Shown: positions 53,306 to 61,339 of the stretch, one piece after another
Numbering within the stretch: the stretch's first letter is position 1
Layout of the letters: every line of letters starts with the position of its first letter
Source of the DNA: Escherichia coli
Lineage (GTDB): Bacteria > Pseudomonadota > Gammaproteobacteria > Enterobacterales > Enterobacteriaceae
Assembly: GCF_003790525.1 (NCBI RefSeq)
Contig: NZ_CP033635.1
DNA: 64,000 bases
Reading direction: 5' to 3' (one strand)
Notes under the pieces: generated by a model
Told to the model about the DNA's origin: nothing
Database searches by the model: none
The model's input: only the letters and a program-made list of their open reading frames with translations
Program-made: the position numbers and the translations under genes

Positions 53306-55156
53306 ATGGCAACAATAATCCCAACAATCAGTAGCTGCAACGATAAAATTACTGCCGGAGAGAAAAGGCTGGCAAGAATTCTGGAAAGAGGACTAGGCGA
53401 AGAGTGCTGCTGTTGGTATGACATTCCCACGGGTGATAAGCATCTTCACCCAGATTTTATGATACTTTCGCCAGAAAAAGGCATTATTTTTCTCGAGGTA
53501 AAAGATTGGTTTATTACAAAAATAAAAAAAGCCAACAAGTCTAATGTGTTGTATGAGACACAAAATGGTATTCAATCTTTAAAGAATCCGATAGAACAAG
53601 TTAGGCGATATGCTTTCGAAGCTGTAAACCAGTTAAAAAAAGACCCCCTATTGTGCCAACAGGATGATCGTTACAATGGCAATCTTCTTTTCCCCTATGG
53701 ATATGGCGTCTACTTTAGTAATATTACACGAGAAGCATTAAATAATAAATTTACTCAAGAAGAGCTGCTCGGGATCTTCCCATCAGATCTCATCATCTGC
53801 AAAGACGAAATAAATGAATTCATGTCAAAAGAGGATGTTTCATCCAAAATACATTCGTTGATTAAATATGACTTCAAATGTCATGCTACACAAGAACAGT
53901 TGAACAGGATTAGATGGCACTTATACCCCGATGTCAGAATAGAAAGGGAAAAGAGAAGTAAAAACCGTGATGAATTTAGTGTCGATGCACCAACCATCAT
54001 TTCTATCCTGGATACTCAACAGGAACAACTTGCCAGAAGTATGAGAGATGGCCACCGGATCATTCATGGTGTTGCAGGTTCAGGGAAGACATTGATCCTC
54101 TATCATCGCTGTCAGGAATTAGCGAAAAAAAATGACAGCGAAAAGCCAATTCTTGTCATTTGCTACAATATTACTTTAGCCAAAAAACTTCGGTCGATGT
54201 TCATCAATCATCCCTTTGCAGAGAAAATAAAGGTTAAAAATTTTCATGCTTGGTGTTTCCAACAAATTAAAGAAAACAAGATCACTATTCCAGAAGGGGA
54301 TAATATTTTTGAAAATATGGAGCTAGCGTTGACTGATGGTTTCAAGACAGGAAAAATAAAACCAGAACAATACAGCGCTGTATTAATTGATGAAGGACAT
54401 GATTTTAAGCCAGAATGGTTAAAAATCCTGGCAAAAATGACTGACTCTCAGGACGAGAATTTGCTATTCCTTTATGATGATGCTCAGTCAATTTACCAAA
54501 AAAAGAAAGCATTAGACTTTACACTGTCCAGCGTAGATATTAAAGCGACAGGACGCACAACCATTCTTAATATAAATTATAGAAACACACAGCAAATCCT
54601 ACACTTTGCCAGTTGCATTGCATTTAATTATCTTAATAGCCATATCGATAGTTCTTTAACCTATCATAAACCTGCTGCGGGAGGAATGAATGGCGATTAT
54701 CCCAACCTTGAACATTTCGACACACAGGACGAAGAAATAGCACGAGCAGTCGAATGGATTACAGAGCAAAATGAACAAGGGATTCCGTGGTCTGAAATTG
54801 CTATACTAAGTCCATCAACTCACACCCTTTCTAACTCTCTAAGCTCTGTACTTGAATCGAAAAACATCCCCTTTAATCTTATTGTAAGCTCTGCAGATAA
54901 AAAGTCCTGGACGCCAGAACAAGAGCGTATTTCTGTTATGCCATTACCCAGCAGTAAAGGACTTGAGTTTCACTCAGTTGTCATTATTGATGCAGCGAGA
55001 ACACGGGATAATAGCGATGATTTGAGTGAGGATATAAAGAGACTCTATGTAGGTTTTACCCGAGCACGTTGCAATCTCTTGGTAACCTTGCACGGTGAAG
55101 GTGCGTTAAATGAGCATCTACTAAAAACCTATGAGCAAAGCCCACAATATATGTAA
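53306..55156 (+). CDS. NERD (PD-(D/E)xK-like nuclease) domain fused to SF1 UvrD-like helicase/ATPase, 616 aa; candidate single-gene defence protein
   Basis: N-terminal HPDFMILSPEKGIIFLEVKDW (D..E.K nuclease-like core); Walker A GVAGSGKT (aa 255-262), Walker B LIDEGHDF, motif VI-like VGFTRAR; gene is low-GC and sits where K-12 has mrr-hsdRMS. Confidence 0.8.
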   Translation: MATIIPTISSCNDKITAGEKRLARILERGLGEECCCWYDIPTGDKHLHPDFMILSPEKGIIFLEVKDWFITKIKKANKSNVLYETQNGIQSLKNPIEQVRRYAFEAVNQLKKDPLLCQQDDRYNGNLLFPYGYGVYFSNITREALNNKFTQEELLGIFPSDLIICKDEINEFMSKEDVSSKIHSLIKYDFKCHATQEQLNRIRWHLYPDVRIEREKRSKNRDEFSVDAPTIISILDTQQEQLARSMRDGHRIIHGVAGSGKTLILYHRCQELAKKNDSEKPILVICYNITLAKKLRSMFINHPFAEKIKVKNFHAWCFQQIKENKITIPEGDNIFENMELALTDGFKTGKIKPEQYSAVLIDEGHDFKPEWLKILAKMTDSQDENLLFLYDDAQSIYQKKKALDFTLSSVDIKATGRTTILNINYRNTQQILHFASCIAFNYLNSHIDSSLTYHKPAAGGMNGDYPNLEHFDTQDEEIARAVEWITEQNEQGIPWSEIAILSPSTHTLSNSLSSVLESKNIPFNLIVSSADKKSWTPEQERISVMPLPSSKGLEFHSVVIIDAARTRDNSDDLSEDIKRLYVGFTRARCNLLVTLHGEGALNEHLLKTYEQSPQYM

Positions 55157-55174
55157 AAATGATAAATTATCTCC

Positions 55175-55206
55175 ATAACGCCCGGTAACGCTGTACCGGG
55201 CGTTAT
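55175..55206 (+). terminator. Stem-loop downstream of the NERD-helicase gene (possible terminator; no clear T-run)
   Basis: 13-bp perfect inverted repeat ATAACGCCCGGTA ... TACCGGGCGTTAT with 6-nt loop. Confidence 0.4.
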
Positions 55207-55288
55207 GAATGTATATCTAAGATATTAGTCACGCCTGATAGCCGCTACCAAAAACGCCATCATCTCCCTCTCATCTTTGCTGTGATAA

Positions 55289-55594
55289 AAGCGTACCATT
55301 TTGCTGTTAAATTCCAGCGCTTTAGCCACTGGAATTAACAAGTTCAAACTTCCGACAACGAAGTTCCAGTTATTACAAAAATTACTGGCAAAAGAGATGA
55401 AAAGCGTAGTTGACAACACATCGAAATATACTGACTGGAGTAAACGCGATGATATTAAAGCGAAACTGAAAGTTGAACTTATTCTGCTTCTACACAAGCA
55501 TAAGTTCCCGCCAGTAGCGAATGATGATGTTTATATGGGTGTGCTGGCACAGGCAGAGAATTTTAAAGAACATCATATGAGTGCTTTAAATTAA
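55289..55594 (+). pseudogene. Possible 3' remnant of a type I restriction enzyme R-subunit (HsdR C-terminal region)
   Basis: Frame opens only at 55289 after a stop, no upstream coding partner; product ...TDWSKRDDIKAKLKVELILLLHKHKFPPVANDDVYMGVLAQAENFKEH resembles the conserved HsdR C-terminal YPP-containing motif as recalled. Confidence 0.4.
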
Positions 55595-55713
55595 TTATGA
55601 AGGCCGGATACACTTTGTTATCCGGCCATTGTGAATTAACGTTAATTTCTCTTCCAGATATTTCCAGTAACGCTTTTATTATTTTCTATTTTTAGCTGGA
55701 CTTTCCCTGTATT

Positions 55714-55733
55714 TACTGATGATATGTCCAGGT
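55714..55733. promoter_or_regulatory. LexA (SOS) box upstream of symE
   Basis: TACTGATGATATGTCCAGGT contains CTG-N10-CAG with AT-rich spacer about 80 bp upstream of symE start. Confidence 0.5.
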
Positions 55734-55749
55734 ATTTAGCGCGGTGCGA

Positions 55750-55830
55750 ATGTGCGCCAACACACCCGCACCGCTCATCACAATCACTATTTATGGAGAA
55801 TAGTAATCATGACTGACACGCATTCTATTG
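55750..55830 (-). ncRNA. symR: Expected position of SymR antisense sRNA overlapping the symE 5' end (approximate)
   Basis: Placed by established knowledge that SymR is transcribed antisense across the symE RBS and start codon; ends not determined from sequence. Confidence 0.35.
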
Positions 55831-56150
55831 CACAACCGTTCGAAGCAGAAGTCTCCCCGGCAAATAACCGTCAATTAACCGTGAGTTATGCGAGTCGCTA
55901 CCCGGATTACAGCCGTATTCCCGCCATCACCCTGAAAGGTCAGTGGCTGGAAACCGCCGGTTTTGCTACCGGCACGGCGGTAGATGTCAAAGTGATGGAA
56001 GGCTGTATTGTCCTCACCGCCCAACCACCCACCGCCGAAGAGAGCGAACTGATGCAGTCACTGCGCCAGGTGTGCAAGCTGTCAGCGCGTAAACAAAAGC
56101 AGGTGCGGGAATTTATTGGGGTGATTGCCGGTAAACAGAAAGTCGCCTGA
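55809..56150 (+). CDS. symE: SOS-induced type I toxin SymE (YjiW), AbrB/MazE-fold endoribonuclease-like
   Basis: ORF track 55752..56150; conserved start [48 protein letters not shown]. Confidence 0.9.
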
Positions 56151-56196
56151 TACATTGACCCGGTAGCGCCAGTGCTACCGGGTATTATTCGCCGTG

Positions 56197-58290
56197 TTAG
56201 ACCAACGCGCTCTCCATCTGTTTTTCAAATGCCTGACGAATTAATCCCATAACGTAAGGAAGTTGTGCGAGGTCGCTGAAACCAATTTCCACATCACCAT
56301 TGCCCCAGCGCCCAACATTTGTCACATCTTTGGCAATACCTTTCGGATCGACCAGTTCATGAAACTGCATATTAAGCGACAATCGCAGTCGGCTTTTTTG
56401 CGGCACAACATCAACAAAATTCGTTTCCGCTTTAAACGCAATATAGAGCTTCAATACTTCCTGCGTGATCCCTGCGTCCAGGCGCATAACTTCATCGCGA
56501 AGATGATCAAATAACACCCGGCTATGCGAACCATCAGCAAGAAAAGGATAATCACTCAGGCTATAACTGGTTTTGTTTTCAGGCTGCGCCCGATAAACAG
56601 CTAAAACCTCTTCAGGAAGAGCAGGCGCTTGCCAGACCTGAACCGCGAGATCGGCCAGACGATCGGCACGGGCGCGAATGGCGGCTTCATCCCATTTTTC
56701 GCACTGTCCAAGACCGATATTCAAATAAAGCGGGCTATGCTTAAAGCCGTCTTCAATATCGCGTTTTTCCGCGAAAGGTCTGTCACTGTAGCGGGAGTTA
56801 TAGCGCGTTAATGTGAGATTCCCCAACGTATGTAACAGTTCTTTATGCACACGCTGCCAGTCGCTTCCCAGCTCTTCACGCCATTTAGCCGACAAATTTT
56901 CGTTCTGCGGCATAATATGCTCAATCGTAAACTCTTCCACGCGCTCTCTGCGTTTATCGTTTTCCAGTCGTCGTAACCAGTAGCTGCGACTGCGGAAGTT
57001 ATAGAGATCGCGAACTTTTAATTCCCGTTTAAATTCATCATCGTTGGGGAAACGACGATATGAAGGCAGATTCAGAAAATGTACCTGAATACTTTCCAGA
57101 TATTTTTCTTTAATAATGACCTTATAAAAGGTAGCAAACGTCTTGTTAAGAGAATTTGTCGGAATCGCACATACTGCACGGCGGAAAACATAAGATTCAA
57201 TTAAACGAATTATGCTCAGGAAATCTTCGTGAGGCAAATCGCCATTTTTATAGTCATGATAAAGCGCCAGTAAGAAAGGATACGCCACATCGACCTTTAA
57301 CTCGCGCAAATCCTGAAAAGCCGTAGCAAGCGATTTGTCACTTTCTTTACCCAATGCCATTGCACAGTAATACTCCGCGTAGATGTGAATATCTTCAACC
57401 AGGTGATCCACGCCTTTTTCAGCAACACTCTGGCTGCGGGCATGGAGTTTAAATGCCTCATAGACTTCATCTGTACGAGGGATCTCCCCCGTTTTTACCG
57501 TCAGATAATGACGCATAAAGCTGTCAAAATATTCGCTGTAACCTTGCTGACCAAAAGCGACTTCCATTGGACGCCAGTGATCTTCATACAACCGGGTTTG
57601 ATGCTCTGGTTCGAGACCCATCAGAATAAAATTGCGCACCAGATCGGCCTGACTTAACGCCTTACCGGTAGAGTTCATACTTTCAAAAATCAGTTGCGGA
57701 TTATCCTGACCACGATTAAGCGCCACATCGACAATTAATAATTTTGCTAACCCACGACATAAGGGGATCAAGTCATCACCGAGTTTGGCAATTTGCTCAT
57801 CAAAGAAAGTAAAGTTTTCCATTATTCGATGGGAATAGTTTTCTGGCATTGGTCTTTGTTTTATTAACGCCAGCAAACTGTCTTTATCAGTCTCGGTCAG
57901 CAGTAATTTAAATCCTTTCTCGCCGGACTCATAAGGATTGAGTAAATAATAATTACGCAATTTCATTGCTGAAAAGCCATCAAAAACTTCGTCTTCGCCA
58001 AGATGACGCGATAAAGCCTCAATCAGCAACATTGCGGTCGTCAGCCTTTGTTGACCATCAATGACCAGTAACGGAGAAATACCAGAAACCTGATACAACC
58101 CCTGCTCAATATAAACAACCGAACCGATAAAATGCGCTGATATATCGTCACGCTTTCCGGCACGAATGATGTCGTCCCAAAGTTGCCGACATTGTTGTTC
58201 TGTCCATGAATAAGTCCGTTGATAAATGGGAATCACAAACTGCTGCGAACGTTTTAAAAAATCGAGTAGGCGGGCTTCTGTAGCTTTCAT
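56197..58290 (-). CDS. DUF262 (ParB-like NTPase) + DUF1524 (His-Me finger nuclease) fusion, GmrSD-family putative type IV modification-dependent restriction endonuclease
   Basis: 697-aa ORF with N-terminal VIDGQQRLTT (DGQQR motif) and C-terminal EFTIEHIMPQN...H..LGNLTL nuclease motif; convergent with symE, in the slot where K-12 has mcrBC. Confidence 0.78.
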   Translation of the reverse strand: MKATEARLLDFLKRSQQFVIPIYQRTYSWTEQQCRQLWDDIIRAGKRDDISAHFIGSVVYIEQGLYQVSGISPLLVIDGQQRLTTAMLLIEALSRHLGEDEVFDGFSAMKLRNYYLLNPYESGEKGFKLLLTETDKDSLLALIKQRPMPENYSHRIMENFTFFDEQIAKLGDDLIPLCRGLAKLLIVDVALNRGQDNPQLIFESMNSTGKALSQADLVRNFILMGLEPEHQTRLYEDHWRPMEVAFGQQGYSEYFDSFMRHYLTVKTGEIPRTDEVYEAFKLHARSQSVAEKGVDHLVEDIHIYAEYYCAMALGKESDKSLATAFQDLRELKVDVAYPFLLALYHDYKNGDLPHEDFLSIIRLIESYVFRRAVCAIPTNSLNKTFATFYKVIIKEKYLESIQVHFLNLPSYRRFPNDDEFKRELKVRDLYNFRSRSYWLRRLENDKRRERVEEFTIEHIMPQNENLSAKWREELGSDWQRVHKELLHTLGNLTLTRYNSRYSDRPFAEKRDIEDGFKHSPLYLNIGLGQCEKWDEAAIRARADRLADLAVQVWQAPALPEEVLAVYRAQPENKTSYSLSDYPFLADGSHSRVLFDHLRDEVMRLDAGITQEVLKLYIAFKAETNFVDVVPQKSRLRLSLNMQFHELVDPKGIAKDVTNVGRWGNGDVEIGFSDLAQLPYVMGLIRQAFEKQMESALV

Positions 58291-60254: not shown

Positions 60255-60360
60255 CATGCCGGATGCCATGTGAACACCTTACCAGGTCTACAAAATCTTT
60301 AAAATTCAATATATTTAATGGGTTATGTAGACCTGATAAGCGTAGCGCATCAGGCTGCTT
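60255..60360. repeat. REP-like elements between yjiR and rpnD
   Basis: GCCGGATGCC...CCTTACCAGGTCTACA and TGTAGACCTGATAAGCGTAGCGCATCAGGC palindromic units. Confidence 0.6.
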
Positions 60361-60382: not shown

Positions 60383-61339
60383 TTAGTACTCGATCCATGG
60401 ATCGCGCTTGCTTTCAGGCAAGGGCTGCTCTAATGCCTGCATTTGCTCTGCCGAAAGTCCGGTATATCGTTGTATCCATTCAGGATCCGCCCCATTCTGC
60501 AACAACAATCGGAGGAGGCTCTTTTCCCCTTCTTCTTTCCCTTCTTTCCTCCCCCTCTCCCTTCCCAACAGCCATCCATCATTATGAATTCGCTCTGCAA
60601 TCGTCATTATTCGCTCCCTGTGTTGTGGCATTCGACGGATAAGTTCGCTGATAAACTCATTAAAACGCGCTTCATCGCCAGTCAGTAAAATGTAATTTAA
60701 CAGCGCGGTTATCTGGCTGTCATTAGCGCACCCTGTAACCAGTAATACTGCCAGTTGATCAATAAGCCCCATTAGATCGCGCTGGCGAATATGCTTTTGG
60801 ATCAACTCCAGCAGGGCGACTCTGCGATGCTGCACAATCTCGTCGTCTGGCACGACAGTGACATCCACCAGCGGGAACGCTGCGGTATAAAGCTTCCGCG
60901 CGGTAGCCGGGTCGGCAAATTCATCCAGCCAGCACAAAGACCAGGGGTAAGGACTACGGCTACTGTGATAAAACAGCATCGGGATGACCAGCGGTAGCGG
61001 CCGGCGTTTATCATGCTCGATATGGCGCTGCATCACCGCCATGGAATATCGCATCAGGCGAAAGGCCATATGGATATCCTCGCGGCTCTGATGTTCAATC
61101 ACCACATAAATATAGCCATCTCCTTCGCGGGTCTTTACCGACCACAGAATATCGGAATGTAGCGCCCGCAATTTTTCATCGACAAAGCTGGCGTATTCCA
61201 GTTTTAAGCTGTCGAGATCGCACAGTTCACGTAAATCTTTGGGTAAGTGGATCTCCATAAAATCCCGCGCGGTGTCAGGGTGGGTGAGAAAAGATTTAAA
61301 TAATGCGTCATGCGGCGTGCTGGTCGTGAAGTTTGTCAT
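60383..61339 (-). CDS. rpnD: Rpn-family recombination-promoting nuclease (YhgA-like, PD-(D/E)xK), intact 318-aa copy at the yjiP/yjiQ (rpnD) position
   Basis: [45 protein letters not shown]...[10 protein letters not shown] matches the Rpn/transposase_31 family N-terminus. Confidence 0.85.

Follow-up and report, generated by a model that had tools for sequence, protein, structure and literature searches.

The open reading frame (ORF) at positions 60383..61339 of the window, the whole 64-kb stretch of DNA that was analysed, is, judging from its sequence, an intact chromosomal rpnD (yjiP) ortholog of Escherichia coli SMS-3-5, and it probably constitutes a one-gene toxin-antitoxin module that would specify a nuclease, RpnD_L, together with its own small antitoxin, RpnD_S. 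This reading starts from features observed directly in the gene, namely an uninterrupted ORF, membership of the Rpn family, the residues that are required in RpnA, an internal methionine codon preceded by a Shine-Dalgarno sequence, a repeat tract that varies among alleles and purifying selection. The existence of rpnD, its defect in K-12, its position at the border of the Immigration Control Region (ICR) and the hypothesis of a role in recombination are all already known from the literature. We propose that the gene be annotated as a probable RpnL/RpnS module instead of a transposase or dedicated recombinase.

The window matches the reverse strand of the SMS-3-5 chromosome (NC_010498.1) with 100% identity, and rpnD and all of its features described below lie on the minus strand. 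The coding sequence, including the stop codon, begins with ATG, contains no internal stop and encodes a 318-aa RpnD_L. RefSeq annotates the CDS at the same position as WP_000181181.1, 'Rpn family recombination-promoting nuclease/putative transposase', between yjiR and mdtM, which agrees with the placement given in the earlier note on this DNA. The product matched Pfam PF04754 (Transposase_31) over residues 8-210 with an E-value of 4.9e-85 and 284.7 bits (cutoff, 21), with positions 1-202 of the 203 in the profile aligned, and matched the NCBIfam Rpn subfamily model TIGR01784 with 168.9 bits (cutoff, 52.1). Both scores exceed the curated cutoffs, so that the assignment of a single, uninterrupted ORF to the Rpn/YhgA-like family, as the earlier note had proposed, was borne out. 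The Transposase_31/YhgA-like domain, which includes a PD-(D/E)xK-type nuclease core, corresponds to 60710..61318. The protein scored below the cutoff of 583 bits of two equivalog models, reaching 384.0 bits against the RpnA model NF007361 and 393.7 bits against NF007418 (PRK09956, 'ISNCY family transposase'). Therefore, RpnD is a distinct paralog and not RpnA. Its assignment to the rpnD orthologous group is supported by its position between yjiR and mdtM and by its high identity to the K-12 gene b4584, and the yjiR-rpnD-mdtM arrangement was also found in nine further sampled genomes. [quoted passage not shown]

The residues required for the activity of RpnA are all present in the SMS-3-5 protein. 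Mutation of D11, D63, E82, Q84 or R94 abolishes RpnA phenotypes (PMC5350276), and alignment with K-12 RpnA, to which RpnD is 58% identical overall, showed a position-for-position match at each of the five. They span 61058..61309, with D11 encoded at 61307-61309, D63 at 61151-61153, E82 at 61094-61096, Q84 at 61088-61090 and R94 at 61058-61060. Of 35 aligned family members, all carry D11, D63 and E82, and 34 carry Q84; R94 likewise occurs in 34. RpnD thus has the variant PD-(D/E)xK site of the family, in which Q84 replaces the lysine and is accompanied by D63 and E82, together with D11 and R94. A PDDE motif (residues 164-167, 60839..60850) was also recognised by alignment with RpnA; P164, D165 and D166 are invariant in the 35 sequences and E167 is found in 33 of them. 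The D166 residue of RpnD corresponds to D165 of RpnA, whose replacement by alanine yields a hyperactive protein (PMC5350276).

An AlphaFold2 model of full-length RpnD built from the 35-sequence alignment was of low confidence (mean pLDDT, 59), with values of 65-87 per 10-residue block over residues 10-125, apart from 60 for residues 51-60. The order of the elements in this low-confidence model, a strand at 40-49, strands at 62-70 and 76-84, a helix at 90-109 and a strand at 117-124, is consistent with an alpha-beta-beta-beta-alpha-beta core. A Foldseek search of the PDB with the same low-confidence model returned no match with an E-value below 0.07. The only phmmer matches of RpnD in the PDB were designed ankyrin-like repeat proteins, aligned through a 'LLLQNGADP' stretch, and they were regarded as artefacts.

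Two substitutions at conserved positions distinguish the SMS-3-5 protein from its relatives. At residue 49, it carries tyrosine where 33 of the 34 other homologs carry serine, and at residue 126 it carries serine where all 34 carry glycine; G126S is confined to 19 genomes. The SMS-3-5 toxin may be attenuated by S49Y and G126S, and in view of these substitutions an intact ORF is no guarantee of an active nuclease.

The antitoxin of the proposed module is predicted from an internal in-frame ORF that begins at M245 (ATG at 60605-60607) and runs to the shared stop codon (60383..60607), giving a 74-aa RpnD_S. A Shine-Dalgarno sequence, AGGGAG (60614..60619), lies 6 nt upstream of the internal ATG and is kept in all sampled alleles except for a single A-for-G change in O157:H7. 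M245, which is invariant in the 35 family members, aligns with the internal start M244 of RpnA, which has been verified experimentally (PMC10400941). A conserved in-frame start with a ribosome-binding site, situated close to a variable tail, is the arrangement expected of RpnL/RpnS genes. In K-12, internal initiation peaks have been reported for all five rpn genes (bioRxiv 10.1101/520783), and Zhong et al. 2023 found an internal transcription start in all of the K-12 rpn genes and detected all five RpnS proteins, RpnD_S included (PMC10400941).

Shortly after the internal start, the sequence encodes a variable tract of four-residue repeats, with five G-x-x-x units at 60518..60577 (residues 255-274 of RpnD_L and 11-30 of RpnD_S), within which Tandem Repeats Finder (TRF) reported a 12-nt period at 60527-60553. 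According to Zhong et al., the 4-aa repeats of Rpn proteins begin 8-20 residues after the RpnS methionine and set cognate specificity (PMC10400941). The units of RpnD conform to this description, since they begin at residue 11 of RpnD_S and vary in number from two to six among the alleles of E. coli and E. albertii: there are two in K-12 and UTI89, three in O157:H7 and E. albertii, four in the 314-aa class represented by N-01, five in the SMS-3-5 class and six in one cluster. Homologs from Citrobacter, Klebsiella and Salmonella show a similar repeat ladder, with lengths stepping by 4 aa.

A sigma-70-like site (ATGACA, an 18-nt spacer and TAAATT, with TG before the -10 element) is located at 60694..60723, approximately 80 nt upstream of M245. 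The promoter scan of rpnD yielded three sites versus 2.6 expected in shuffled sequences, which is not above background, and the stretch at 60694..60723 is nearly invariant in 14 strains; we tentatively regard it as a candidate rpnD_S promoter. The same scan gave no sigma-70 match upstream of the main rpnD start.

The RpnD_S model produced by AlphaFold2 is all-helical (residues 3-17, 23-37, 42-49 and 53-59) with low-to-moderate confidence (pLDDT, 71), and its first long helix is broken in the glycine-rich tract. In the known RpnS fold, that of RpnA_S in PDB 7TH0, three helices form a bundle, the first of them long (PMC10400941). A Foldseek search of the PDB with the low-to-moderate-confidence RpnD_S model gave nothing with an E-value below 2, and 7TH0 was not retrieved. 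An RpnS profile did match 7TH0, but this match is circular because RpnA_S is itself included in the profile. The matches of the same profile to designer PPR and ankyrin proteins were rejected as artefacts, as they sum weak repeats with no single significant stretch. A Pfam scan of RpnD_S alone found nothing with an E-value below 0.07, the local Pfam copy evidently lacking PF27070, for which a precomputed listing exists for RpnD homologs.

On the basis of these features and of published work on other Rpn proteins, the module would operate as follows. RpnD_L would be an endonuclease that depends on divalent cations and cleaves DNA with little regard to sequence, acting through the variant PD-(D/E)xK site (D63, E82 and Q84), and when unchecked it would be toxic and SOS-inducing. 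RpnD_S would be translated from M245, probably off a transcript that starts inside rpnD, and would block the nuclease by binding to RpnD_L at its C-terminal domain, with which RpnD_S is identical. Inhibition would be limited to the cognate pair by how many G-x-x-x units the first helix contains, which is five in this allele. If RpnD_S were lost or came off RpnD_L, as might happen in a phage infection, the nuclease would be released. It is from experiments on RpnA, RpnB, RpnC and RpnP2 that we predict RpnD to be a nuclease, to be toxic and to be neutralised by RpnD_S, as well as any role that it may have against phages. Metal-dependent endonuclease activity has been demonstrated in vitro for RpnA (PMC5350276). 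RpnS, the product of internal initiation, inhibits the RpnL nuclease by binding to RpnL (Zhong et al. 2023; PMC10400941), and neutralisation of the cognate RpnL has been shown for RpnA, RpnB, RpnC and RpnP2 (PMC10400941). The repaired K-12 RpnD is toxic and SOS-inducing in vivo (PMC4498929, PMC5350276). The plasmid-encoded RpnP2 protects against T-even phages (PMC10400941), and the literature reports no phage phenotype for RpnD itself. The 2023 release of PADLOC contains no Rpn model and accordingly gave no hit for rpnD.

An older view assigns RpnD a physiological role in RecA-independent recombination that drives the replacement or shuffling of the adjacent ICR cassettes, and the earlier note had likewise suggested that an intact copy contributes to such shuffling. 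The gene has been listed as a framework gene of the ICR (PMC4498929), and the SMS-3-5 island at about 53306-58290 of the window, which contains a NERD+UvrD-type candidate defence gene, an hsdR remnant, symE and a gene for a GmrSD-like enzyme, lies approximately 2 kb from rpnD beyond yjiR and yjiS; the earlier note was right to place the gene beside a defence hotspot. Overexpression of the repaired K-12 RpnD raised RecA-independent recombination 4.7- to 5-fold (PMC4498929, PMC5350276), and structural breakpoints were found within or beside rpnD in the genomes sampled here. However, Kingston et al. found no evidence that RpnD targets the adjacent ICR, and the recombinant patches that they observed reached far past it, often over more than 1.5 Mb (PMC4498929). 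Deletion of rpnA-D leaves the basal recombination frequency unchanged (PMC5350276), and native RpnL is expected to be kept inactive by RpnS (PMC10400941). As for the breakpoints, those inside rpnD adjoin copies of IS1, and therefore IS1-mediated deletion is sufficient to explain them without any Rpn activity. The increase in recombination is documented for overexpression of the repaired K-12 allele and probably arises secondarily from DNA damage. The hypothesis is thus old, partly tested and not well supported (PMC4498929, PMC5350276), and we consider it unlikely that recombination is the physiological role of RpnD; later work, which the earlier note does not mention, sees in the Rpn family defence modules that combine a toxin with an intragenic antitoxin (PMC10400941).

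Comparison with K-12 and with other E. coli strains bears on whether the gene is maintained. The K-12 MG1655 pseudogene rpnD (b4584) occupies the same place between mdtM and yjiR and is approximately 95% identical to the SMS-3-5 gene at the nucleotide level. The alignment of the two, which the earlier note had called for, located the disruption at codon 104 (61028..61030), which is CAG (Gln) in SMS-3-5 and TAG (amber) in K-12. This in-frame amber codon is the sole lesion of the K-12 reading frame, which has neither a frameshift nor a physical split; the earlier description of the K-12 gene as a split pseudogene therefore holds in that the gene is broken, but not in that it is divided. The catalytic residues, as described above, are present in the SMS-3-5 protein. 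A second difference is one of length, 36 nt (12 codons), in a purine-rich C-terminal tract near the 3' end. Kingston et al. 2015 had already stated that yjiP is complete in most strains and carries a premature stop in K-12, and they synthesised a repaired K-12 allele, yjiPc (PMC4498929). The idea that active K-12 RpnD was obtained by means of an amber-suppressor strain was rejected, because the repaired yjiPc was made by synthesis (PMC4498929).

To quantify the alleles, we searched 5,426 complete E. coli genomes with queries of 30 nt, chosen so that no 28-nt megablast seed could avoid the variable base. The TAG allele was found in 339 genomes and the CAG allele in 3,445. The 40 TAG carriers listed are K-12 derivatives and laboratory strains; this allele is essentially that of the K-12 laboratory lineages. 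Gln104 is the norm, as has been stated since 2015 (PMC4498929), and the intact copy is not as noteworthy as the earlier note had suggested. The 225-nt C-terminal segment of SMS-3-5 was present at ≥95% identity in 1,975 genomes. A gap of 12 nt would by itself lower identity to 94.7% or less, so these genomes share the SMS-3-5 length class, which is therefore the commonest form of rpnD.

We also aligned and translated 16 rpnD loci sampled across the range of identity. Half of them are intact, encoding proteins of 318 aa (SMS-3-5, M1/5 and Z503), 314 aa (N-01, 07D18CPO002 and strain 10) or 306 aa (UTI89 and TB06051), and the remaining eight carry inactivating lesions, no two of them alike. The lesions comprise stop codons replacing Q104 in K-12, E72 in LH85-a and C40 in O145:H28, a 1-nt deletion near codon 133 in EC12, a 125-nt insertion near codon 151 in O6:H16 M9682-C1, a 25-nt tandem duplication just past the internal start in O157:H7, and IS1-bounded truncations at codons 255 and 126 in CFSAN061762 and Z142-1, respectively. 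In WCHEC005215, the whole region has been lost beside an IS1 copy. Searches with junction-specific 30-mers showed that the O157:H7 duplication is carried by 279 genomes, the EC12-type deletion by 62, the C40 stop by 28 and the E72 stop by 22. Including the K-12 allele, null forms of rpnD are found in at least 730 genomes and represent at least five independent knock-outs. Although intact in most strains, rpnD is therefore clearly dispensable. Among the eight intact alleles, the mean dN/dS over codons 1-244 is 0.14, whereas values over the last 44 codons, where very few substitutions are available, are mostly 0.2-0.75 with a range of 0.04-1.6. These values indicate that the nuclease domain is still under purifying selection and that the tail evolves fast.

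These data allow an assessment of the possibility that the SMS-3-5 gene, although intact as an ORF, is attenuated or heading for loss, being a dispensable remnant whose ORF persists by chance or for the sake of RpnD_S alone. Independent knock-outs are common in the species, from stop codons and small insertions, duplications and deletions to IS1 truncations and deletions of the whole locus, and S49Y and the lineage-specific G126S affect conserved positions of the SMS-3-5 protein. Such decay nevertheless seems doubtful, as every residue required in RpnA is intact in SMS-3-5 RpnD, the nuclease domain has been held to the low dN/dS given above among intact alleles and 3,445 genomes carry the Gln104 allele.

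A related scenario concerns which part of the module is lost. The RpnD_S ORF and its internal start are spared by the Q104 stop of K-12, the C40 stop of O145:H28, the LH85a-type E72 stop, the EC12-type deletion and the O6:H16 insertion, which could be the outcome of selection for shedding a costly toxin while keeping an orphan RpnD_S that neutralises incoming cognate Rpn toxins; G126S, with S49Y, would then perhaps be an earlier, attenuating step in SMS-3-5. However, five of the six small lesions fall upstream of M245, a part that makes up 77% of the gene, and this is the chance expectation, with no bias. We give this scenario little credence. Whichever forces act on it, rpnD is polymorphic for function across E. 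coli, both in knock-outs and in the number of repeat units (two to six), and could be used for comparative tests of Rpn function.

The remaining alternative, that rpnD is the transposase of an ISNCY-type insertion sequence, is suggested by database names (the Pfam title 'Putative transposase, YhgA-like' and the title of the best NCBIfam equivalog, 'ISNCY family transposase', whose cutoff was not reached) and is extremely improbable: no terminal inverted repeats or target duplications were found in the rpnD flanks, the gene has a median of one place per genome at a fixed locus with 4,748 of 4,751 places being chromosomal, and Zhong et al. reported no evidence of autonomous transposition (PMC10400941). 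The lack of flanking inverted repeats and the occurrence of rpnD as one copy that stays at its locus exclude an insertion sequence.

The K-12 RpnD is one of the closest counterparts of the SMS-3-5 protein. Besides the stop, there are only nine amino acid differences in residues 1-244 between SMS-3-5 and the repaired allele yjiPc, S49Y and G126S being among the features that set SMS-3-5 apart, and the two agree in their catalytic residues and in the internal start. Owing to the amber codon at position 104, K-12 makes no full-length protein without repair, whereas the SMS-3-5 frame is uninterrupted. The K-12 tail has two G-x-x-x units and a 62-aa RpnD_S, in contrast to the five units and 74 aa of SMS-3-5, and the last approximately 12 residues also differ, the K-12 protein ending in ERERYSWLKS and that of SMS-3-5 ending otherwise.

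K-12 RpnA (YhgA), the biochemically characterised exemplar of the family, is another paralog, encoded at a locus of its own, but shares with RpnD the architecture of a Transposase_31 domain followed by a small helical tail. Its antitoxin, RpnA_S, which has been crystallised (PDB 7TH0), consists of 49 aa from M244, compared with the 74 aa predicted for RpnD_S, and its tail contains at most one G-x-x-x unit in the family alignment, compared with the five of SMS-3-5 RpnD. RpnP2, a plasmid-borne member from ECOR13 that was tested on T-even and BASEL phages, is the only Rpn with demonstrated anti-phage activity; it belongs to the same family as the chromosomal RpnD and, according to its published description (PMC10400941), has the same RpnL/RpnS gene-within-gene organisation.

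Comparison of the rpnD loci sampled from other E. coli genomes suggests that the border of the Immigration Control Region (ICR), at which rpnD lies as a framework gene, has been repeatedly eroded by IS1-mediated events. In strains CFSAN061762, Z142-1 and WCHEC005215, deletions that end within rpnD adjoin IS1 copies. The deletion ends found in rpnD lie at codon 126 and at codon 255, the latter being the exact start of the G-x-x-x repeat tract, and one of the IS1-adjoining deletions has removed the entire stretch between a point next to brnTA and the leader of mdtM.

In strains UTI89 and TB06051, an intact rpnD of 306 aa directly adjoins yjiN. On the other side of the UTI89 gene, GmrSD-like genes are located nearby. 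Both strains lack mdtM, and yjiR is absent from UTI89 and present only as a fragment in TB06051; therefore, rpnD outlasts both of the flanking 'framework' genes. The rpnD alleles are also highly divergent, with dS values of ~0.12–0.20 for most pairs when the allele of the window was compared with seven other intact alleles, and these values exceed those typical of E. coli core genes. Such a high dS would fit the hypervariability and frequent recombination for which the surroundings of the ICR are known.

Two putative defence genes of the ICR were matched by PADLOC. With an E-value of 1.7e-222, an unbroken 697-aa ORF (56197–58290, minus strand) was matched very strongly to 'Orf5'/HEC-06, a GmrSD-like type IV restriction family; the C-terminal part of the ORF is a PDC-S18-like segment. 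RefSeq presents this ORF as two features, one of which is marked as a partial pseudogene, in SMS-3-5 and UTI89 alike; this split is possibly an annotation artefact. The second, a 616-aa protein (53306–55156, plus strand) annotated only as '3'-5' exonuclease', matched the candidate defence model C3a187 'NERD+UvrD' (E=1.3e-140), with weaker matches to GajB, Nhi and DRT-associated helicases.

A REP-like palindromic element (60278–60360), which is retained in K-12, follows closely on the 3' side of the rpnD stop codon. Its arms are 28-nt inverted repeats (60278–60305 and 60313–60340), followed by GCCTGATGCGCTACGC (minus strand). In E. coli O6:H16 strain M9682-C1, rpnD is split near codon 151 by a 125-nt insertion (~1037–1161 of locus L005) with TATAC present on either side. 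This insertion, which contains …GTGAATCCCCAGGAGCTTACAAAAGTAAGTGACTGGGGTGA…, resembles an ERIC/IRU repeat; if it is indeed an ERIC/IRU, it would provide an example of an ERIC recently inserted into a coding sequence.

Finally, throughout the O157:H7 clade, a 25-nt segment (CGATTGCAGAGCGAATTCATAATGA) is duplicated in tandem directly after the internal start of rpnD, and this duplication was found in 279 genomes, including EDL933. It puts both the full-length product, RpnD_L, and RpnD_S, the predicted antitoxin, out of frame, whereas the amber lesion of K-12 rpnD (Q104*) leaves RpnD_S intact.
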